Shown here piece by piece: positions 1 through 44,724 of a stretch of DNA of 49,665 nt; the first letter of the stretch is position 1, and each line of letters starts with the position of its first letter. Under the pieces are notes generated by a model. The model saw only the letters and a program-made list of their open reading frames with translations. It ran no database searches and was not told where the DNA came from. The stretch is from contig CAZAZV010000004.1 in assembly GCA_964489845.1 (NCBI GenBank), forward strand, positions 1 to 49,665, read 5' to 3'. Source of the stretch: an uncultured Candidatus Saccharibacteria bacterium. GTDB lineage: Bacteria; Patescibacteriota; Minisyncoccia; UBA6257; GWB1-50-10. Both the position numbers and the translations under genes were made by a program.

Positions 1-14
1 CCCCCAGTGCAATA

Positions 15-48
15 TATCGGTATCGGATACCCATAAAGTTATCCACAG
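15..48. repeat. REP-like palindrome copy (core hairpin plus right DnaA-box arm)
   Basis: TATCGGTATC-G-GATACCCATA-AAGTTATCCACAG; identical over 34 bp to 664-697. Confidence 0.9.
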
Positions 49-636
49 TTATGATTTCGGCTTCACGACGAGCGTCCCCTCAAGCCCGCCGCTCGGGCAG
101 TAGTCCTGGCAGGCCATCTTGAATGTCCCGCTCTGCGGCACGCGGAAACTGGTATGCTTGTCCACGCCGTCAGGGCTCGTGATATACACCCCCATCGCGG
201 GAATGGATAAATCGTACTGTCCGCCTTGCGACGTAAAGGTAAGCTGCACGATGTTCCCCTGCACGACGACGAGCTGGCTCGGGTTATAGCCGTTCCGCGA
301 GGCGATGACATGGTAGATACCGAGCGATTCATCCTTCGTCGGGTCGGTCACGACTTGCACGGTTGTCTGCGCGGGCGTCTCCACCGCGTTCTGCGGCACG
401 CTCGGCGTGTACCCCGTATTCTGCAACTCCTCCTGCGGTGTCATGGTGCTGGTCGCATTCATTCCCGTCTCATTCGTGCCGGAAGGACCGCCTCTCGTCC
501 CGCCGCCCGACACGATGCCGACGACAATAACGGCGACAAGCAACACGGCTCCTCCGATGAGTATGTACAGTTCCTCCTTGCGTGTCTTCTCTGGCACGCC
601 CGTCCGACTCTCCGTCCCCTTCGCCATTCCTTCCAT
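49..636 (-). CDS. membrane-anchored cupredoxin-domain protein
   Basis: N-terminal TM helix, Thr/Pro-rich linker, C-terminal cupredoxin-like motif (F..ACQDYC...G.LVV); start may be 627. Confidence 0.7.
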   Translation of the reverse strand: MEGMAKGTESRTGVPEKTRKEELYILIGGAVLLVAVIVVGIVSGGGTRGGPSGTNETGMNATSTMTPQEELQNTGYTPSVPQNAVETPAQTTVQVVTDPTKDESLGIYHVIASRNGYNPSQLVVVQGNIVQLTFTSQGGQYDLSIPAMGVYITSPDGVDKHTSFRVPQSGTFKMACQDYCPSGGLEGTLVVKPKS

Positions 637-650
637 TATATCATACCCAC

Positions 651-697
651 CTGTGTATAACTTTATCGGTATCGGATACCCATAAAGTTATCCACAG
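651..697. repeat. full-length 47-bp REP-like palindrome (2 mismatches)
   Basis: CTGTGTATAACTTTATCGGTATC-G-GATACCCATAAAGTTATCCACAG, directly abutting the transposase stop codon. Confidence 0.9.
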
Positions 698-1402
698 CTA
701 TTCAAGCCCCATCAATGAATCTCGATTGGTTTCGAAGTCGCTTAACCAATTCATAAACCGGTTCCGATACTCCCTCGGATTGCCAGTCAGCAGATCTCGA
801 AGATATTCTCGCTGTATCACCGATGGAAAATTTTTCCAACCGGCGTAGTCCGGGAAGCTGCTCCACCGGTACGTCTCCAGATATTCAAGAACCTCAGCAG
901 CGTTTTGTAATTTCCCTTCTCGCCATTCGGGATAGACAAGATCGAGCGCGTTCGCGTGCACATAATACAAGACGTACTCGAAATACTCTGGCGTATCAAC
1001 GTGTTTGCACCGATACTTCCCTCGGAAAAGCGCTCCTGAACGCTCGTACCTCTTATTGAAATATCTTGCGTAGCCACCATTAAATTTTCTAATAAACAGC
1101 GGAATTCCGCTGTCAACGCACGGACGGAGCAATAAATGATAGTGATTAGGCATCAGCACAAATGCCAACACCTCGACAAGTAACGTTCTCTTCTTCTCAA
1201 TCTCAATATATGGGTATCCGATACCCATAAAGTTATCCACAGATTTTTTGAAAGAATAAGCGGTATTCGAGACAATGTCTTGATTGTTAAATTCAAAAAG
1301 ATCATGAACGCCGCGCAAGTAGTCACCGTCATTAAGAAAAATCTCGCGCCCATCAACGCCTCTGTTACAGATATGATATATTTCCCCAACGGCCTGTCTC
1401 AT
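698..1402 (-). CDS. Y1/HUH transposase, IS200-like / REP-associated tyrosine transposase (RAYT)
   Basis: YHICNRG, LMPNHYHLL (HUH), YFNKRYERSGALF, YVHAN (catalytic Tyr region) and YRWSS motifs; flanked by palindromes. Confidence 0.9.
   Translation of the reverse strand: MRQAVGEIYHICNRGVDGREIFLNDGDYLRGVHDLFEFNNQDIVSNTAYSFKKSVDNFMGIGYPYIEIEKKRTLLVEVLAFVLMPNHYHLLLRPCVDSGIPLFIRKFNGGYARYFNKRYERSGALFRGKYRCKHVDTPEYFEYVLYYVHANALDLVYPEWREGKLQNAAEVLEYLETYRWSSFPDYAGWKNFPSVIQREYLRDLLTGNPREYRNRFMNWLSDFETNRDSLMGLE
1209..1242. repeat. REP-like palindrome copy inside the transposase CDS
   Basis: TATGGGTATC-C-GATACCCATA-AAGTTATCCACAG; translated as SVDNFMGIGYPY. Confidence 0.9.
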
Positions 1403-1407
1403 GGATT

Positions 1408-2934
1408 TTACTCGTCACAAAATTTCTGTCGAAACTGGAGAGCTTCGGCGAGATGTTCGCGCTCGACACACTCACTCCCTGCCAAATCCGCAATCGTTCG
1501 TGCGACCTTGATAAGCTTGAAGTGCCCTCGTGCGGAAAGGTGGTGCTTCGCGCTCGCAAGCAGCAATAACTCCTCACTGGCGCCCGAGAGCCGAGCGAAT
1601 TCCTTGAGATGCGAGTTTTTCATTTCCGCATTCGTGGCAATGCCCGCGTTGGCAAAGCGCTTGAGTTGAATCGCCCGCGCCTGTTCCACATCGTCGCGAA
1701 GCGCGTGTGTTGTCTGACGCAGTTCGCGGTTCACGCTCTCCTGTAATTTCTCCGGCGCAACCGGCTCCATCCGCACATGCAAATCAATACGGTCAAGTAT
1801 CGGCCCGGACACGCGCTTGCGGTACCGCTCGATTTCCCGCGGCGAGCAGGTACACGCTCGGTGCGGATGGCCGAGATATCCGCATGGGCACGGATTCGCC
1901 GCGGCGATGAGCATAAATTCCGCCGGATACGTAATATGCTCCTTGCTCCGAGAGATGGTGATAGAGCCGTCCTCCATCGGCTGGCGGAGCGCCTCAAGCA
2001 CCGAGCGCGGAAATTCGTTGAACTCGTCCATAAAAAGCACGCCGCGGTGCGCCAAGCTGATCTCCCCCGGCTGCGGCACTGCCCCGCCGCCAATAAGACC
2101 GACGGATGAGATGGTGTGGTGCGGCGCACGGAACTGCCGCTCGCGAATGATGCCGCCATGCGGCGGAATCCGTCCCGATACGGAATAGAGTTTCGTCACC
2201 TCAAGCGCCTCGCGGTCGGTGAGTGGGGGTAAAATGCCCGCACAAGCTCGCGCGAGCATCGTTTTCCCGACACCAGGACTCCCACTCATGATCATATTGT
2301 GTCCGCCAGACGCTGCGATAAGGCACGCTCGTTTTGCCTGCTCCTGACCGGCGATTTCCGACATATCGAATTCAATTTCGAGTTCCTCTCGTGGCTCATC
2401 AATATGCGTCACTGGCTGCACTGTTTCCGAACCCGCGAGGTGTGCAAGGAGCTCCGTCAAGCTCCGTACGCCGTATATATCGATGCCGCTGACAGCTGAT
2501 GCTTCATTCGCCGAAGCCATCGGAACAAAAACTTTTTTGAAGCCCTTCTCTTTCGCGAAAAGTGCGAGAAGCAACGCGCCTCTCCCGTGCCGCAATCCAC
2601 CGTCAAGCGACAGTTCGCCGAAGAAAAGTGCGTCCTGCGGTACGGCATACTTAAAGACCAAGGAGAGGATGCCGATCGCGATGGGCAAATCATACAACGA
2701 GCCCTCCTTCGGCACATCGGCAGGTGCGAGATTCACGGTGATGCGCCGCTGGGGAAATTCGATACCAGAATTCACAATCGCCGTCCGCACGCGATCCTTG
2801 CTTTCCTGGATTGCTTTATCACCGAGTCCGACAATATCAAGACCCGGCAATCCACGCGAAGCTGTGTTGACTTCAACCTCGACGCCAACCGAGTGCAGCC
2901 CCGAAAGTGTTGCCGACAATACATTAACCAACAT
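1408..2934 (-). CDS. comM: YifB/ComM Mg-chelatase-like AAA+ ATPase
   Basis: ITVNLAPAD, GSPGVGKT, FRAPHHT, GEISLAHRGVLFMDE and NPCPCG motifs. Confidence 0.95.
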   Translation of the reverse strand: MLVNVLSATLSGLHSVGVEVEVNTASRGLPGLDIVGLGDKAIQESKDRVRTAIVNSGIEFPQRRITVNLAPADVPKEGSLYDLPIAIGILSLVFKYAVPQDALFFGELSLDGGLRHGRGALLLALFAKEKGFKKVFVPMASANEASAVSGIDIYGVRSLTELLAHLAGSETVQPVTHIDEPREELEIEFDMSEIAGQEQAKRACLIAASGGHNMIMSGSPGVGKTMLARACAGILPPLTDREALEVTKLYSVSGRIPPHGGIIRERQFRAPHHTISSVGLIGGGAVPQPGEISLAHRGVLFMDEFNEFPRSVLEALRQPMEDGSITISRSKEHITYPAEFMLIAAANPCPCGYLGHPHRACTCSPREIERYRKRVSGPILDRIDLHVRMEPVAPEKLQESVNRELRQTTHALRDDVEQARAIQLKRFANAGIATNAEMKNSHLKEFARLSGASEELLLLASAKHHLSARGHFKLIKVARTIADLAGSECVEREHLAEALQFRQKFCDE

Positions 2935-3814
2935 GGTACTTGCCTAACTTTTCAATCACCGCACCCTGCAGCTCCATAAGAGAAAGCAGGGCTCCGACCT
3001 CATCGCTCGATGCGCCGAGCTTGCGACTCAGCTCGTTCACCGTGAGCGCCTCACGTTGCAAAAGCGAGAGGATACTCGCCTCATCGCACACCACTGCTCC
3101 GCTTTCCGCAACGTCATCCTCAAGCACGGTTGCATTGGTATCGGTCCCCGCTTCATCAATGTCAATGCGATAATATTTCAGCACATCTGCCGCGACGGTT
3201 ACCATCTCCGCCTGCTTTGATTTGAGCAGTGCGAGCGTCCCTTCTGCAACGGAGCTTGTAATCTGTCCCGGCACGGCAAAAAGTTTCCGCCCGTATTCGA
3301 GCGCAAGGCGAGCGGTGATAAGCGAGCCGCTCCGCGCACCACCCTCAATAACGAGCACTGCCTGCGAAAGCCCCGCGACAATGCGGTTGCGCGCCGGGTA
3401 CGTCCACACTTCCGCGGGAAACGTTCCCTCATATTCTGACACGACGAGGCCGCCTCGGTTCAGGATCTCGCGATACAAATCTTCCTGGTACGCGGGGTGG
3501 ATCACGTCGATGCCGCACGGCATCACCGCAATCGTCCGTCCGCCGACTTCGACCGCCGCGCGATGCGCCGTCGCATCGATGCCGTACATGAAGCCGGAAA
3601 CGATCGTAATGCCCGCACCAGCGATCTCCCGCACGAGGTCGCGCGCCACCCGTTCCCCGTAGCTCGTCATCCGCCGCGTCCCCACCACACCAAGGCACTG
3701 TAGGAAAAGCTGCTTCCGCCATGCGCCCTTGTAATACAGCGGCGACGGCGGGTCCGGGATGCTCCGCAGGCGCCCCGGATAGCTATCGTCTTCTATATAG
3801 ATACACTTGTCCAT
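2924..3814 (-). CDS. dprA: DNA-protecting protein DprA
   Basis: VVGTR, IVSGFMYGIDATAH, YPARNRIVAGLS and SGSLITA motifs; C-terminal winged helix. Confidence 0.95.
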   Translation of the reverse strand: MDKCIYIEDDSYPGRLRSIPDPPSPLYYKGAWRKQLFLQCLGVVGTRRMTSYGERVARDLVREIAGAGITIVSGFMYGIDATAHRAAVEVGGRTIAVMPCGIDVIHPAYQEDLYREILNRGGLVVSEYEGTFPAEVWTYPARNRIVAGLSQAVLVIEGGARSGSLITARLALEYGRKLFAVPGQITSSVAEGTLALLKSKQAEMVTVAADVLKYYRIDIDEAGTDTNATVLEDDVAESGAVVCDEASILSLLQREALTVNELSRKLGASSDEVGALLSLMELQGAVIEKLGKYHVG

Positions 3815-9727: not shown

Positions 9728-9774
9728 CTGTGGATAACTTTATCGGTATCGGATACCGATAAAGTTATCCACAG
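9728..9774. repeat. perfect 47-bp REP-like palindrome with two inverted DnaA boxes
   Basis: CTGTGGATAACTTTATCGGTATC-G-GATACCGATAAAGTTATCCACAG; 23-bp perfect arms. Confidence 0.95.
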
Positions 9775-16702: not shown

Positions 16703-17944
16703 TTATTCGTATCGGAGCGCTTCGATGGGGCTCTTCTCCGCGGCTTTCTTCGCCGGATACAGGCCGAAGACGAGCCCCACACCCGCTGAAACCGTGAGTC
16801 CGAGAAACACAGCGGGAACCGAGAAGACGAACTTCCAGCCCGGCGACACGAAGTGCTGGAGCACGAGCGAGACGAGGAACGAGAGCGCGAAGCCAAGCGC
16901 GATGCCGACGGCGCCGCCGATGCCCGTGAGAAACACCGATTCCAGGAGATACTGGCGCGAGATATCCTGCGCCGTCGCGCCGACCGCTTTGTGCAGCCCG
17001 ATTTCCCGCGTCCGCTCCGCGACCGACACGAGCATGATATTCATAATCCCCACGCCACCGACGATGAGTGAAATCGACGCCATGGCGACGAGGAACCAAG
17101 TGAGTGCGGAGGTAATCGTCGAGAGGCGGTTCGCCAAATCGGCCTGCGTCTGCACGAAGAAATCGTCCTTCGACGGGTCGGTGATGTTATGCGATTCGCG
17201 CAACGTCAGTTTCACGTCATCCGCCACGATGGACACGTCCGCGCCGTCCTTCGCCTCGACGATGATGCGGTTGAAGTATTTGATGCCGAGCAAATAATCC
17301 TGCGCCGTCGTGTACGGCATGAGCGTCATGTCGTCGAAATTGAAAAGCGTCCCGCCGCCGGATGCGGGCAGGACCGCGACGACGCGGAAACTTTTCCCCT
17401 TGATGCGAATCGTTTGTCCGACGGGGTCTTCACCATCGGTAAACAAGTGACTGGCGACTTTCGAACCGATGACGACAACGTTCGCGCGAGAGAGCACGTC
17501 ATTCGCGCCGAAGAATTCCCCCTCTTTCGGCGCGAGGTCGAACATGCTCGCGAGAAGTTCGGTCCCGCCGAAAATCGAAACCTGGTACGTGTTGGGACCG
17601 TACACCGCGGTCTCGGCGCCGAAAACGACCGGCATCACGTCCTTCAAACCGGGGACGTTCGCGGGATTCTCGAGCGCCGTGATATCCCGCTGCTTCAGCG
17701 AATCGCTGTAGAGCGAGGTGACGTCGGACGGTCCGGTCGGCTCCCTGCCCGGCACGACGGCGATGGTTTGCGTCCCGATACCCTGCACCTCGCCCAAAAT
17801 GAGCGCCTGCGCGCCCGCGCCCAGGGACATCACGAGAATGATTGCTGTGATGCCGATGATAATGCCGAGTATGGTGAGCGCCGAGCGCGACTTGTTCGCC
17901 CGCAAGCTTCCCAACGCCGTTTTAATGCTGTGCCTGATGTGCAT
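16703..17944 (-). CDS. MacB/FtsX-like ABC transporter permease
   Basis: RSALTILGIIIG, GGVGIMNIMLVSV.ERTREIG, PIEALRYE. Confidence 0.95.
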   Translation of the reverse strand: MHIRHSIKTALGSLRANKSRSALTILGIIIGITAIILVMSLGAGAQALILGEVQGIGTQTIAVVPGREPTGPSDVTSLYSDSLKQRDITALENPANVPGLKDVMPVVFGAETAVYGPNTYQVSIFGGTELLASMFDLAPKEGEFFGANDVLSRANVVVIGSKVASHLFTDGEDPVGQTIRIKGKSFRVVAVLPASGGGTLFNFDDMTLMPYTTAQDYLLGIKYFNRIIVEAKDGADVSIVADDVKLTLRESHNITDPSKDDFFVQTQADLANRLSTITSALTWFLVAMASISLIVGGVGIMNIMLVSVAERTREIGLHKAVGATAQDISRQYLLESVFLTGIGGAVGIALGFALSFLVSLVLQHFVSPGWKFVFSVPAVFLGLTVSAGVGLVFGLYPAKKAAEKSPIEALRYE

Positions 17945-17945
17945 G

Positions 17946-18665
17946 CTATTTCTTGAAATCGTCCCGCGCGAGGCGGCGCGCGCCGACTCGGCGGTCGCTG
18001 TCTATGGTGCCGTCCAAAACGTGGATAATCCGCTCCGCGTGCTCCGCCGTGTACGTCTCGTGCGTCACGAGTATCACGGTGTGCCCCTGTTTTTCGTTCA
18101 GGTCCTGCAAAATCTCCATGACGGTCCGTCCGGCGGCGGTGTCGAGGTTCCCCGTCGGCTCGTCCGCGAAAATGATTTCCGGGTGATTCACGAGGGCCCG
18201 CGCGATGGCGACGCGCTGCCGCTCTCCGCCGGAGAGCTGCGCCGGCGTGTGGTCGAGGCGGTGTGAGAGACCAACGGCGTGTATCGCCTCGCGGGCGCGG
18301 TGCTCCCACTGCCGCTCCGGTACGTCCGAATACACGAGGGGAAGCATCACGTTTTCCAACACATCGCGGCGCGGGAGCAAATTAAACGCCTGGAACACAA
18401 ACCCCATCTTCTGGTTGCGGACATGGGCGATTTCCTCGTCGGTGTAGTCATCGAAGCTTTTCCCCTCAAAACGGTATGTCCCGCTCGTCGGCCGGTCGAG
18501 GAGCCCGAGGATGTGGAGGAGCGTCGACTTCCCGGAGCCGGACGGACCCGTGATGGCGACAAACTCACTTTTCTCGACGGCAAACGAAATGCCGCGCAGG
18601 GCGCGCGTCGCCACGTCATCGTCTTCGTATTCCTTCACGAGATGCTGTACCTCGATGAGCGCCAT
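17946..18665 (-). CDS. ABC transporter ATP-binding protein (LolD/MacB-like)
   Basis: [26 protein letters not shown]. Confidence 0.96.
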   Translation of the reverse strand: MALIEVQHLVKEYEDDDVATRALRGISFAVEKSEFVAITGPSGSGKSTLLHILGLLDRPTSGTYRFEGKSFDDYTDEEIAHVRNQKMGFVFQAFNLLPRRDVLENVMLPLVYSDVPERQWEHRAREAIHAVGLSHRLDHTPAQLSGGERQRVAIARALVNHPEIIFADEPTGNLDTAAGRTVMEILQDLNEKQGHTVILVTHETYTAEHAERIIHVLDGTIDSDRRVGARRLARDDFKK

Positions 18666-23708: not shown

Positions 23709-24935
23709 TCATTCGTATCGCAATGCTTCAATGGGGTTCAGCGCCGCCGCGCGGCGGGCGGGATAGTATCCGAACACGATACCGATTAAGGCCGACACGC
23801 CAAACGCGAGGAGCACGGAAGAGGGGGAAATGGAGGTCGTGATGCCGCCGAATTTCGCGATAAGGAGCGAGAGCAGCCACCCAAGTGCGACGCCGACCAC
23901 GCCTCCGATGAACGTGAGCGCGGTTGCTTCCGAAAGGAACTGCATGCTGATGTCTTTGTTCTTGGCGCCGATCGCCTTGCGGAGACCGATTTCCCGCGTC
24001 CGCTCGGTCACCGTCGTGAGCATCATGTTCATGATGCCGATGCCGCCGACAAGGAGCGAAATGCTCGCGATTGCCGCGAGGAGCACGGTGAATGTATTGG
24101 TGACCGAGGACGCCGTCTGCACGATGTCCGCCTGGTTCAAGACCGAAAAGTCGGCCTTCGTCGGGTCGGAGATATTATGCCTCGTGAGGAGAAGGTTCGT
24201 CACGCTATTCTGCACTGCCGTCATGTGCGCCGCGCTGTCCGCTTCGATGCTGATGTCGCTCACGTACGTGCTACCCGAGAGATACCGCTGTGCGGTCAAG
24301 AGCGGCACGAAAATTATGTCGTCCTGACTCTGAAACCCGCTCCCGCCCTTCGCAACCGTGACGCCGATGACAGTGAACGCCATGCGGTTGATGCGTATCT
24401 CCTGCCCGATCGGGTCCGTACTCGAACCGAAGAGGTCGCCGGCCGTCGTGGGGCCGAGCACGGCGACGCGCGATGCGGCTTGCACGTCGCGGTCGGAGAT
24501 GAAAGAACCCTCCGCTATCGATTCGTTCCGCACTTGCGCGTACGATGCCGTTGTTCCGATGACCGACGTGTTGGTGTTCGTACCCTTCGCCGTCACCTGG
24601 TATCTGCCCGAGACGTCCGGCGCAACTGCCTGCACGTACTGAACCTGCGACGCGATCGCGTCAGCGTCGGCTTGCGTCAGCGTCTCCGCCGAGCCGCGCC
24701 CCAAGCGGACGCCTCCGCCTCCCACGTTCTGCTGGAAGCCGGGCATCACGATGATGAGATTCGAACCGATGCTCTCAATTGAGGATTGCACGCTCTGCTG
24801 CGCGCCCTGCCCGATGGATATCATGGCGACGACGGACCCGATGCCGATGACGATGCCGAGCATCGTGAGGCCCGACCGCACCTTGTTCATCGAGAGCGCC
24901 GAGTACGTTTCCTGCAATAAATCGGAAAATATCAT
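23709..24935 (-). CDS. MacB/FtsX-like ABC transporter permease
   Basis: RSGLTMLGIVIG, GGIGIMNMM, ERTREIGLRKAIGA, PIEALRYE. Confidence 0.95.
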   Translation of the reverse strand: MIFSDLLQETYSALSMNKVRSGLTMLGIVIGIGSVVAMISIGQGAQQSVQSSIESIGSNLIIVMPGFQQNVGGGGVRLGRGSAETLTQADADAIASQVQYVQAVAPDVSGRYQVTAKGTNTNTSVIGTTASYAQVRNESIAEGSFISDRDVQAASRVAVLGPTTAGDLFGSSTDPIGQEIRINRMAFTVIGVTVAKGGSGFQSQDDIIFVPLLTAQRYLSGSTYVSDISIEADSAAHMTAVQNSVTNLLLTRHNISDPTKADFSVLNQADIVQTASSVTNTFTVLLAAIASISLLVGGIGIMNMMLTTVTERTREIGLRKAIGAKNKDISMQFLSEATALTFIGGVVGVALGWLLSLLIAKFGGITTSISPSSVLLAFGVSALIGIVFGYYPARRAAALNPIEALRYE

Positions 24936-25645
24936 GAAGGAGTGTGTTTCACCATGCGCTGGGTATGATTGCGACCGTCGCTCACGATTTCTCCGTCCTT
25001 CAGGTGAATGATGCGTGCGGCGTGCTCGGCGACGTACGGCTCGTGCGTGATAAGCACGATGGTCCGGTGCCGCTCGAAATTGAGTTCTTGAAATGTCGCG
25101 AGCACGATTTCGCCCGTTTTCGTGTCAAGATTCCCCGTTGGCTCGTCGGCAAGGATGAGCGATGGGTTATTCACCAAGGCGCGCGCGATGGCAACTCGCT
25201 GCATCTGCCCGCCGGAAAGTTGGTTTGAAAGATGATAAAAGTGCGATTCGTCGAGCCCCGCCTCGCGCAGCGCTTCTCGTGCCTGGCGCTCCCGCTTTTC
25301 CTGCGGCACGCCGGCATAGACGAGCGGCAGGACGACGTTGCGCAGCACGGTTGTCCGCGGCAGAAGATTGAACGACTGGAACACGAACCCTATCTTGCTC
25401 TTCCGCACGTCGGCGAGCGTGTCGTCGGAAAGTTTCGACACGTCCTTGCCGTCGAGGAGGTACTTGCCATGTGTCGGCGTATCGAGGCACCCGAGGATGT
25501 GCATCAGGGTCGACTTCCCGGAGCCGGATGGCCCCATAATAGCGACAAACTCGCCATCCTTCACGGAGAACGAAACGTCCTGCAATGCCCTTGTTTCTAC
25601 GTCTCCGCTTCGATATATCTTGCTGACATGTTCTATGTCGATCAT
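24932..25645 (-). CDS. ABC transporter ATP-binding protein
   Basis: [26 protein letters not shown]; start taken at MIDIEHV. Confidence 0.96.
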
Positions 25646-28806: not shown

Positions 28807-28841
28807 TTATGGGTGTCGGATACCCATAAAGTTATCCACAG
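28807..28841. repeat. REP-like palindrome copy between convergent genes
   Basis: TTATGGGTGTC-G-GATACCCATAAAGTTATCCACAG. Confidence 0.9.
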
Positions 28842-33337: not shown

Positions 33338-33353
33338 CTGTGGATAACTTTAT
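33338..33353. repeat. isolated left arm of the REP-like palindrome
   Basis: CTGTGGATAACTTTAT, identical to the first 16 nt of the 9728 copy. Confidence 0.75.
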
Positions 33354-39930: not shown

Positions 39931-39983
39931 AATTATCTCGAGTGCGTTTTATCTTATTTCTACCCCATTTCTCAGACTTTTAG

Positions 39984-39992
39984 TTATCCACA
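39984..39992 (+). promoter_or_regulatory. DnaA box / REP arm fragment
   Basis: TTATCCACA within AGTTATCCACAG. Confidence 0.6.
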
Positions 39993-40032
39993 GGAAACTT
40001 GCTTGACATCGTCCTGGCTGTTACAATGATTA

Positions 40033-43529: not shown

Positions 43530-43539
43530 CTGTGGATAA
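43530..43539 (-). promoter_or_regulatory. DnaA box / REP arm fragment
   Basis: CTGTGGATAA between the rarA stop and the lexA promoter. Confidence 0.6.
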
Positions 43540-43542
43540 TTT

Positions 43543-44724
43543 CTATTTATCCTCCAGGTACTTCCGTCCTCGGAGCTCGTCCGGGAGGAGGTCGTCCCGG
43601 GTGTAGCGCTCATAGCCCTCGCCGTAGCGGAGCTCGCGCATCAGTTTCGTGACGGCATTCCGGATTTTGAGAGGTATGGGCAGGTTTCCGTGCTTTTTCA
43701 CGTCGTCTACGGCCGCGAAGTACGCGTTATACGACGCCCGGCTCTTGGGAGCCAAAGCGAGATAATTCGCTCCGTGTGCGAGGTTGATTGCGCACTCCGG
43801 GTAACCGATGATTTCCACAGCGCGGAACACGTCGTCTGCGACCAAGAGGGCCTTCGGGTCGGCGAGTCCCACATCCTCGGAAGCAAAAATGACCATACGG
43901 CGCGCGATAAACTTCGGGTCCTCCCCCGCCTCCACCATCCGCGCGAGGTAGTAGAGGGCGGCGTCGGGCTGACTCGCCCGCATTGATTTGATAAACGCGG
44001 AGATGGTGTTGTAGTGCTCCTCCGCCTTCTTGTCGTAGCGGAGAAACTTGGACTGGAGCGTGTTCTTCAAGGACTCGACGGTAATCTCGCCGTAGAATTC
44101 GTGCGCGTTCTCAAGGAGCGTAATCGCCTGACGTGCGTCGCCGTTCGCCATCCCGATAAGCCAGTCCTCCGCGTCGGAAGACATCTTGAGCTTCGTCCGG
44201 CGGACAATTGCGCGCATCTCGTCTTCGGAGAGCTCGTTCAAAACGAAAACGCGGCAGCGCGAGAGAAGCGGCGCAATCACTTCAAACGACGGGTTTTCCG
44301 TCGTTGCGCCGATTAAGGTCAAGGCCCCGCTCTCGACGTACGGCAGGAGGAAATCCTGCTGGGCCTTGTTGAACCGGTGAATCTCGTCCAAGAAGAGAAT
44401 CTTTGGCTTCACGCTCCCCTGCTTCACGAACAGATTGTTCCCCACAGGGCCCGCGCCGAGAATACGCTTGACATCATCCTTCCCCGCCGAGACGGCGGAG
44501 AGCTCTGAAAGAGCGGCGTCAAGATTCTTCGCGTAGATTTTCGCCAAAGTCGTCTTGCCGCACCCGGGCGGACCCCAGAGGATGAAGGAAAAGAGATGCC
44601 GCTTTTCAATCGCGATGCGGAGTGGCTTCCCCGCGCCCACGAGGTGCTCCTGGCCCACGAATTCGTCGAGGGTTTTCGGTCGTATCCGGGAAGCGAGCGG
44701 CTCCGTATCCTTAAGGGAACTCAT
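43543..44724 (-). CDS. rarA: replication-associated recombination protein A
   Basis: [46 protein letters not shown]. Confidence 0.96.

Follow-up and report, generated by a model that had tools for sequence, protein, structure and literature searches.

Introduction

Genes for tyrosine transposases associated with repetitive extragenic palindromes (REPs), known as tnpAREP or RAYT (REP-associated tyrosine transposase) genes, can carry REPs in frame within their own coding sequence. Passages of Quentin et al. 2018 (BMC Genomics 19:475, PMC6006769) describe such cases in subclass 2.4 and in some members of subclass 2.8, and report that no REPs were found for subclass 2.1. In-frame intragenic REPs have also been described in many other genes, in sections of Di Nocera et al. 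2013 (PMC3733652), and intragenic copies go unmentioned in main-text passages of the RAYT/REP papers PMC5581495, PMC8266576, PMC3333891, PMC2817692 and PMC3337134. Here we describe a comparable arrangement in the window, by which we mean the whole 49,665-nt stretch analysed (contig CAZAZV010000004.1 of assembly GCA_964489845.1, from an uncultured Candidatus Saccharibacteria bacterium), where a 34-nt copy of a palindromic repeat, which we call REP-A, is translated as part of a RAYT-like HUH/Y1 transposase. On the basis of sequence comparison and a structural model, the reading that we favour as probable is that this element is a third, intragenic cis copy of the cognate REP-type palindrome of the gene, kept uniform with the flanking copies and lodged in a tolerant, apparently disordered slot that is conserved across a family found mostly in the Candidate Phyla Radiation (CPR).

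As in the cases described in the passages of Quentin et al. 2018 (PMC6006769), the cognate REP lies in frame inside a Y1 nuclease gene, in a peripheral variable region, besides the REPs in the flanks, and the 'double foot' REPs of that work (GT[AG]G...C[TC]AC) resemble the 47-nt form of REP-A (CTGTGG...CCACAG). The present family differs in its fixed slot before the HUH motif, which is of near-constant length, in a second slot past the tyrosine helix, and in its hosts, which are mostly CPR instead of Cyanobacteria and Bacteroidetes. Its motifs (NH[YF]H, FQ, Y[IV]HxNP, SS) come nearest to subclass 2.1, judged by eye only, and the window protein does not belong to subclass 2.4 as those passages define it, its in-frame REP standing before the HUH motif (residues 54-65 against H87) and its motifs being NHYH, LF(R/Q)G and YYVHAN. 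We further find covariation between slot and flanks, compensatory stem changes, and modules in which three hairpins at one gene are the only copies of their palindrome in the genome (trio-only), all of which are unreported in the same passages. Since in-frame REPs in tnpAREP genes and in other genes (PMC3733652) are on record, the phenomenon is already known in kind, and the suggestion of the first-pass annotation that this could be an undescribed system has to be given up; what sets the present family apart is the pre-HUH place and the second place, the constant slot, the CPR-wide prevalence, the covariation and the trio modules.

Materials and methods

The source genome (G000) comprises 578,579 bp in 21 contigs and is estimated to be 97.7% complete; the window is its contig C4. 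The homologue set consists of 27 genes out of 60 related genomes together with the best 80 of 408 confirmed relatives from a species-level genome collection, the latter chiefly Patescibacteria/CPR as judged from record titles. Palindromes were counted in 108 genes (including 2 duplicates), and runs shared with flanks in 106 genes, after removal of duplicates. For the flank scan, 11-mers of each open reading frame (ORF) were sought in up to 600 nt of its own flanks on either strand, with no position set beforehand. Shared runs were counted from a length of at least 3 codons in flanks of up to 600 nt, the flank span and the k-mer thresholds being our own choice, and as a control each gene was compared with the flanks of a random other locus (535 pairings). 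Compensatory stem changes were found by inspecting listed pairs of orthologs at 71-80% protein identity.

Results

The transposase and its intragenic repeat

The product of the transposase gene (Table 1) matches the Pfam profile Y1_Tnp (PF01797; 34.6 bits against a cut-off of 23, E 2.4e-8), as do 27/27 aligned homologues, and H87, H89 and Y147 do not vary across the 27 sequences of alignment A3. The AlphaFold2 (AF2) model made from this alignment has a mean predicted local distance difference test (pLDDT) score of 86.6 and places Y147 within a helix (138-155); this residue is presumed to be catalytic. The best PDB match by Foldseek is 4er8_A (E 2.7e-5, template modelling score normalized to the target, TM(target), 0.62), the E. 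coli REP-associated tyrosine transposase with a REP hairpin bound, followed by ISDra2 and IS608 TnpA chains. Because the protein scores 30.3 bits against the NCBIfam equivalog REP_Tyr_transpos, below its cut-off of 80, we call it RAYT-like. It has the motifs NHYH, LF(R/Q)G and YYVHAN, the family-wide forms being NH[YF]H, LFQG, YYIHxNP and WSS, and only ~55 residues follow WSS at the C-terminus. The closest relative among 5.8 billion clustered proteins searched is 58% identical, and at E<=1e-30 the family numbers 1,229 proteins, most of them from CPR bacteria with tiny genomes.

The hairpin of the intragenic copy is, on the plus strand, a 21-nt palindrome with two 10-nt arms and one central base, and a 13-nt tail comes next. 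The reading frame is unbroken across it, with codon 54 at 1241-1243 and codon 65 at 1208-1210, and the copy is translated as S54-Y65 (SVDNFMGIGYPY), 21 residues N-terminal of the LMPNHYH strand. The sequence, the open frame and the other repeat copies thus bear out the first-pass annotation, which had placed a 34-nt copy with a 10-bp stem in frame inside the coding sequence at residues 54-65. As single-stranded DNA, 1209-1242 is predicted to form a 9-bp stem with a 3-nt loop at -6.8 kcal/mol (z-score -3.0 for the coding strand and -3.7 for the plus strand). The AF2 model shows coil at residues 38-75, with pLDDT falling below 50 at residues 53-59 and 61-68, and the loop holding the copy is predicted to be disordered.

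A slot shared by homologous genes

The 11-mer scan gave a sharp peak 35 to 20 residues before the HUH asparagine in both sets (the 27 genes and the 80 further loci), and a smaller second peak 67-77 residues past it. In the linker before the HUH strand, 66/106 genes share a run with their own flanks (37 with both, 18 with just the 5' flank and 11 with just the 3' flank), compared with 2/535 pairings with foreign flanks. At the second site, the count is 13/106 (foreign flanks 4/535) and elsewhere in the gene 4/106 (foreign flanks 6/535), and 76/106 genes share a run at the linker or the second site. The comparison with foreign flanks shows that the internal sequence is specific to the flanks of its own gene, and it answers in the affirmative the question put by the first-pass annotation of whether homologues carry an internal copy that covaries with their flanks. 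Perfect palindromes with a stem of at least 7 bp occur at the linker in 49 genes and at the second site in 16, and are rare elsewhere in the gene.

The internal palindromes are about as intact as those outside. Over 62 genes, the mean perfect stem is 10.0 bp for the internal copy, 10.5 bp for the 5' flank and 11.0 bp for the 3' flank, so the coding copy is not decaying faster than the flanking ones. The distance from the first strand to the HUH motif is 75.1 residues in genes with a copy (n=60) and 72.8 in those without (n=38), a difference of 2.3 residues that is far below the 7-13 residues encoded by one hairpin; the second-site region is in fact shorter in genes that have a copy there. The anchors that stand 77 residues apart in the window protein are separated by 45 in a canonical RAYT-type relative from genome G048, which places the slot within a family-specific expansion of ~30 residues, and the slot position is common to genes that are 30-60% identical. 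Of 51 linker palindromes, 33 have their centre base in codon phase 0, 15 in phase 1 and 3 in phase 2, a bias that hints at inheritance without deciding the matter. The 5' copy of several loci is found 10-40 nt ahead of the start codon, in the likely leader.

The second slot is in frame, 60-82 residues past the HUH asparagine and after the catalytic-tyrosine helix (loci L088, L091, which is the same as L036, L104, L110, L121, L123, L090, L093 and L114); three of these genes (L090, L093 and L114) have copies at both slots.

Covariation in paralogs and in a congeneric ortholog

The source genome holds two full paralogs of the transposase, 40% and 33% identical to it, and a fragment that is 76% identical over 29 residues, each with another palindrome. 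In the paralog on contig C15, a different palindrome with a 13-bp stem stands at the same place in the protein and also just before the start and past the stop. In the congeneric genome G002, the gene order of the upstream ATPase-like ORF, transposase and downstream ORF is conserved, and the genes on the two sides of the transposase are 82.5% and 68% identical to their counterparts in the window. The slot and both flanks of this ortholog (L025, contig C27) hold a different repeat, which has 76 hits in G002, 0 in G000 and one poor hit in G001, while neither G001 nor G002 gives any hit to the REP-A hairpin. Together with the match of homologues to their own flanks, this genome-specific repeat in the slot of the ortholog refutes a one-off insertion, the alternative named in the first-pass annotation. 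The G002 slot holds a single arm, able to pair only with a flanking copy. In the 3' flank of the same gene, a remnant of the window-type tail, CTGTGCATAACTTTATCG, stands beside the G002-type repeat, and this remnant suggests, at the level of sequence, that one repeat family replaced another at this locus, slot included.

Finer changes are also shared between slot and flanks. The C15 gene (L023) and its G002 ortholog (L052), which are 80% identical as proteins, differ by a compensatory stem pair, CATT..AATG against CACT..AGTG; CATTSAATG is found in 3/3 G000 copies, and CACTSAGTG is exact in 12/13 G002 copies and has one further mismatch in the remaining one. The inner stems of L033, L079 and L077 (GAGGTT/AACCTC, GAAGTT/AACTTC and GAGGCT/AGCCTC) are likewise compensatory, and between the slots of L124 and L125, two genes that are 98% identical, the loop base is flipped and the stem is altered. 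Two palindromes are trio-only, with three copies in the whole genome, in the 5' flank, the slot and the 3' flank: those of G000 C15:3947-4709 (L023) and of G020 C10:7358-8138 (L033). One of these two genomes is rated 100% complete, and the three hairpins of the G020 trio agree in their loop base when read on one strand. Other palindromes are moderately dispersed, with 10-13 loci in G053, G037 and G002, and 18 for REP-A. The trio-only case has the form of a self-contained three-hairpin module rather than of a dispersed repeat family.

A fourth transposase copy in the source genome (C5:1-160, L024) is cut by a contig end, with its first ~60 codons absent and the break exactly at the slot. A different hairpin, GGAAGTCSGACTTC, stands before it in two and a half tandem copies; elsewhere in the genome this hairpin forms arrays like bacterial interspersed mosaic elements (BIMEs) with an alternating loop base (C9:2010-2162, C16:7095-7218 and C19:2885-3504). 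Truncation at the slot as evidence of cleavage was considered and rejected, because, of three candidates, this contig-end fragment behind tandem hairpins is the only one left, and a single example does not suffice. In G048, a match begins only at residue 67, but the protein is a canonical RAYT of full length whose linker is short. In G022, the gene is split by a frameshift that lies within an A-run, upstream of the hairpin, and not by a cut at the slot.

The REP-A family and the DnaA box in its tail

With up to 3 mismatches, the REP-A 21-mer occurs at five window sites (15, 664, 1209, 9741 and 28808), compared with 0.00 expected from 100 shuffles. The hairpin has 18 loci in the 578 kb of the genome, and the arm with the tail gives 20 genome matches against 0 for a reversed control; with one gene of this type, REP-A thus shows the combination of a dispersed palindrome and a low-copy gene by which RAYTs are recognized. 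Copies share up to 47 nt, the full form being a 47-nt palindrome, and the double-tailed copy next to the transposase stop codon is predicted to fold as DNA at -17.2 kcal/mol (z-score -7.9). The copy at the edge of the window and the intragenic copy have an extra CAATATAT flank in common. Among the 14 single-tail copies in the genome, the central loop base relative to the tail is G in 8 and C in 6, and the hairpin core flip-flops independently of the tail. Stem variants are GGG/CCC and CGG/CCG, plus mismatched hybrids, and the intragenic copy is the commonest hairpin variant of the genome.

Table 1. Features of the transposase locus and REP-A copies in the window
Feature	Position	Strand	Basis or remark
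RAYT-like HUH/Y1 transposase gene, 234 aa	698..1402	-	open reading frame; stop codon 698-700
HUH motif H87-Y-H89 (in LMPNHYH)	1136-1144	-	translation, alignment
Conserved Tyr147	962-964	-	translation, alignment
Intragenic REP-A copy: hairpin 1209-1229 + tail 1230-1242, read as residues 54-65	1209..1242	.	sequence, repeat copies, fold
TTATCCACA within tail; coding strand reads TGTGGATAA	1233..1241	+	sequence
Double-tailed 47-nt REP-A, adjoins transposase stop codon (3' flank)	651..697	.	arms 651-673 / 675-697, 91% complementary
REP-A hairpin + tail, adjoins stop codon of ORF 49..636(-)	15..48	.	repeat search
Perfect 47-nt palindromic REP-A	9728..9774	.	23-nt arms, 100% complementary
REP-A hairpin + tail	28808..28841	.	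repeat search
Solo tail motif without hairpin	33338..33351	-	repeat search
REP-A tail sequence: CTGTGGATAA			

The tail contains TTATCCACA, which is the DnaA-box consensus 9-mer as quoted in a passage of PMC6006769. It occurs 34 times in the genome, mostly inside repeat copies, against 1 occurrence of the reversed control, and 44 times in 482 kb of homologous loci (25/106 loci) against 2 for the control. The putative DnaA box that the first-pass annotation had pointed out in the gene thus belongs to the tail of the repeat as such and is nothing peculiar to the gene. We also considered a DnaA-domain-IV-like domain as an explanation of the tails and rejected it, since Pfam at E<=1 found Y1_Tnp only, and no DnaA-like domain, in 27/27 members. 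In several genomes, the 9-mer is often the tail or the outer arms of transposase-associated palindromes with differing cores (among them at L071, L073, L080, L081, L084, L085 and L114). Its window sites are 1233-1241, the 690-697 region, 35-48, 9728-9774, 28828-28841, 33338-33351, 39980-39993 and 43530-43543, and some of the solo copies that exist stand immediately upstream of TTGACA-like hexamers. The coding-strand reading TGTGGATAA includes GTGG, a putative foot of the GT[AG]G type, and the REP-A tail starts CTGTGG; in REP-A, the one family examined for this, GTGG lies 8 nt outside the 10-bp core stem, and a foot is present only in the 47-nt palindromic form. The scattered 'DnaA boxes' of these genomes are thus largely repeat tails.

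REP-A also gives the last residues (…MGIGYP) and the stop codon to ORFs at G000 C8:14988-16070(-), C13:1100-1876(-) and C5:18587-18913(-), and the window ORF 407..685(+), a putative gene only that overlaps the opposite-strand ORF 49..636(-), likewise ends in REP-A. Two more copies fall inside putative genes taken from raw ORF maps, one (C5:30471) in an ORF with a sub-threshold Polbeta match and the other (C8:6072) in the C-terminal tail of a methyltransferase ORF.

Public reads, neighbouring genes and other features of the window

Among public sequencing runs, three DNA runs from one study, and no RNA run, are recorded as containing the stretch. Logan contigs of these three runs all break at the repeat, and none spans 1209-1242. 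Pieces stop at ~1233-1238 or start at 1213, others stop at ~668-692, and loose contig ends at repeat copies run into other repeat loci. In the same runs, summed contig depth is several-fold higher in the repeat-holding 100-nt bins 600-700 and 1200-1300. The public contigs contain no joints or variants, and in contig form they are uninformative on excision, expression or the absence of variants. As no Logan contig bridges it, the junction at 1209-1242 rests on the assembly of the window itself, backed by the unbroken frame, the confident fold and the synteny with the congeneric ortholog. Short-read graphs thus fragment the transposase gene exactly at its intragenic repeat.

The transposase start codon lies 5 nt past the stop of an upstream 508-aa ORF (1408..2934(-); window 1403-1410), a putative ComM/YifB-type ATPase. 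Neither a promoter nor a 5' repeat would fit into this gap, and the two genes are likely to be co-transcribed. Elsewhere in the window, two stretches ~7 kb apart (16977-18239 and 23965-25222) are 71-76% identical over in-register segments of 91-130 nt and are probably paralogous genes.

Discussion

We propose that the slot lies in a ~30-residue disordered expansion between the first helix and the HUH strand, where a palindrome may be translated without harm, and that whichever palindrome flanks the gene would also come to occupy the slot or, in a minority of genes, the second loop past the catalytic-tyrosine helix. Copies near the gene may be homogenized by gene conversion between neighbours; alternatively, the encoded nuclease might cleave and rejoin all hairpins near its gene in cis. 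The in-gene copy would then be one more cis site for the protein or for recombination, not a guide to specificity. A likely side effect, possibly a selected one, would be negative autoregulation, through binding of the protein to the hairpin or through mRNA structure, and the copy may also be a hotspot for truncation of the gene. The small gain in length, the intact stems, the expansion relative to the G048 protein and the trio modules speak for a slot of long standing that has been maintained and is rewritten together with its flanks, and against repeated simple insertions. Whether the in-gene copy is under selection we regard as about even. A stronger version, in which it is a selected, heritable 'self' site, serving as a reference hairpin for autoregulation and/or as a donor renewing the flanking and dispersed copies, such that enzyme specificity and repeat would be inherited together and the three-hairpin module would be the ancestral unit of the CPR-wide family, seems to us unlikely.

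Several observations weigh against a maintained cognate copy. No internal copy is detectable in 30/106 homologues, so it is not indispensable, and the two alternative slots, both variable loops, are also compatible with a pure filter for harmless insertions. The relation of loop orientation between internal and flanking copies is inconsistent between loci. REP-A also reaches into the 3' ends of further ORFs of the source genome, and the transposase gene is thus not alone in having a copy enter its coding sequence; this gene itself has a 3' copy but none on the 5' side, where the upstream ORF is 5 nt away. Loci L073 and L074 share long duplications with their flanks, and L074 is possibly mis-scored as a linker copy. 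Finally, the homologues are mutually related and do not count independent events, so the counts overstate independence.

One alternative is a neutral origin. The nuclease might drop REPs near and in its own gene, with only the in-frame, stop-free copies in floppy loops surviving, functionless and unmaintained. The predicted disorder of the loop, the existence of two slots, the genes that go without a copy and the REP-A copies overlapping the ends of other ORFs all fit such a history, and it is how intragenic REPs are read in passages of Quentin et al. 2018 (PMC6006769) and Di Nocera et al. 2013 (PMC3733652). It agrees less well with a net length gain of nearly nil, with internal stems as perfect as the flanking ones despite lying in coding sequence, with compensatory changes in common with the flanks, with a slot that holds one of only three copies in the trio-only genomes, and with the same slot in genes 30-60% identical; we see it as possible but rather improbable. 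At the RNA level, the hairpin, alone or paired with a flank arm in the transcript, might slow or block translation or invite RNase cleavage and so keep the nuclease low, an idea drawn by analogy with IS200, whose tnpA is said to be repressed by stem-loops. This would agree with the maintained stems, with 5' copies 10-40 nt upstream of the start in several loci and with the single arm of the G002 slot that pairs only with a flanking copy, but no U-run follows the intragenic hairpin in the sequence, Rfam matched nothing in window 1-3000 at E<=1, and the transposase gene has no 5' copy, and we consider such a regulator quite unlikely.

The first-pass annotation had raised another idea, in which the in-gene copy would be a master template or guide, a reference for specificity or for re-templating the other copies, so that editing its loop retargets the system. 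The slot does covary with the genome-wide repeat family, the internal copy is the commonest hairpin variant, and trio-only modules exist. Against this, the split of the loop base between G (8/14) and C (6/14) relative to the tail indicates that the central base is not a specificity determinant, 30/106 genes manage without a copy, dispersed repeats exist where the slot has only one arm, and the covariation is equally expected from simple homogenization. To our knowledge, Y1 enzymes such as IS608 and TnpAREP read the hairpin through the protein and short adjacent substrate bases, with no remote template, which also counts against the idea, and we regard it as very improbable. Last, the assembler might have joined halves of two loci at their shared repeat, as the lack of a bridging Logan contig in the three runs would allow; yet the reading frame continues across the join, the resulting protein is full-length, its linker has a normal length and its fold is confident, the gene order is the same in congeneric G002, and unitig breaks are expected at a 34-nt repeat, so we give an artefact hardly any credence. 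We therefore retain the third, intragenic cis copy as the probable reading.

Other described systems share parts of this arrangement. The locus resembles the E. coli REPtron, a TnpAREP/RAYT with its REP/BIME sequences, in the HUH/Y1 fold, in a cognate palindrome that borders the gene, here on the 3' side, and is dispersed in the genome, and in having one repeat family per paralog, as far as portions of Nunvar 2010, Ton-Hoang 2012, Messing 2012 and Corneloup 2021 describe it; it differs in missing the REP_Tyr_transpos cut-off, in a linker ~30 residues longer and in the in-gene copy. IS200/IS605 elements likewise have a Y1 transposase between two similar hairpins, which are subterminal (LE and RE), and the trio-only modules are more like an insertion sequence (IS) than like dispersed REPs. 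The present system differs from them in having near-perfect palindromes, a third, in-gene hairpin and no multiple near-identical copies of the whole element, G000 containing only the divergent paralogs (33-40% identical) and a fragment. In the HUH initiators of phiX174 (gene A) and pT181 (repC), the nick site lies inside the initiator's own gene; the putative site here is alike in lying in frame in its own HUH gene, but theirs are replication origins with shown function. In Rickettsia, palindromic elements (RPEs) are short repeats translated in frame in tolerated regions of proteins. RPEs and the intragenic REPs described in sections of PMC3733652 lie in unrelated genes at varied sites, whereas here the host is the gene of the repeat's own presumed enzyme, and there is a conserved slot and covariation with the flanks.

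What keeps repeats and tyrosine nucleases matched, and by what means the repeats spread, are questions still to be answered in the field of RAYTs and REP doublets forming hairpins (REPINs). The family described here offers a natural experiment, as its translated slot tracks the repeat even between congeneric species with swapped repeat families, and also where a palindrome is confined to a three-copy module. The concerted evolution of an enzyme gene and its substrate is directly measurable in this family, and the slot provides a handle for bench tests.

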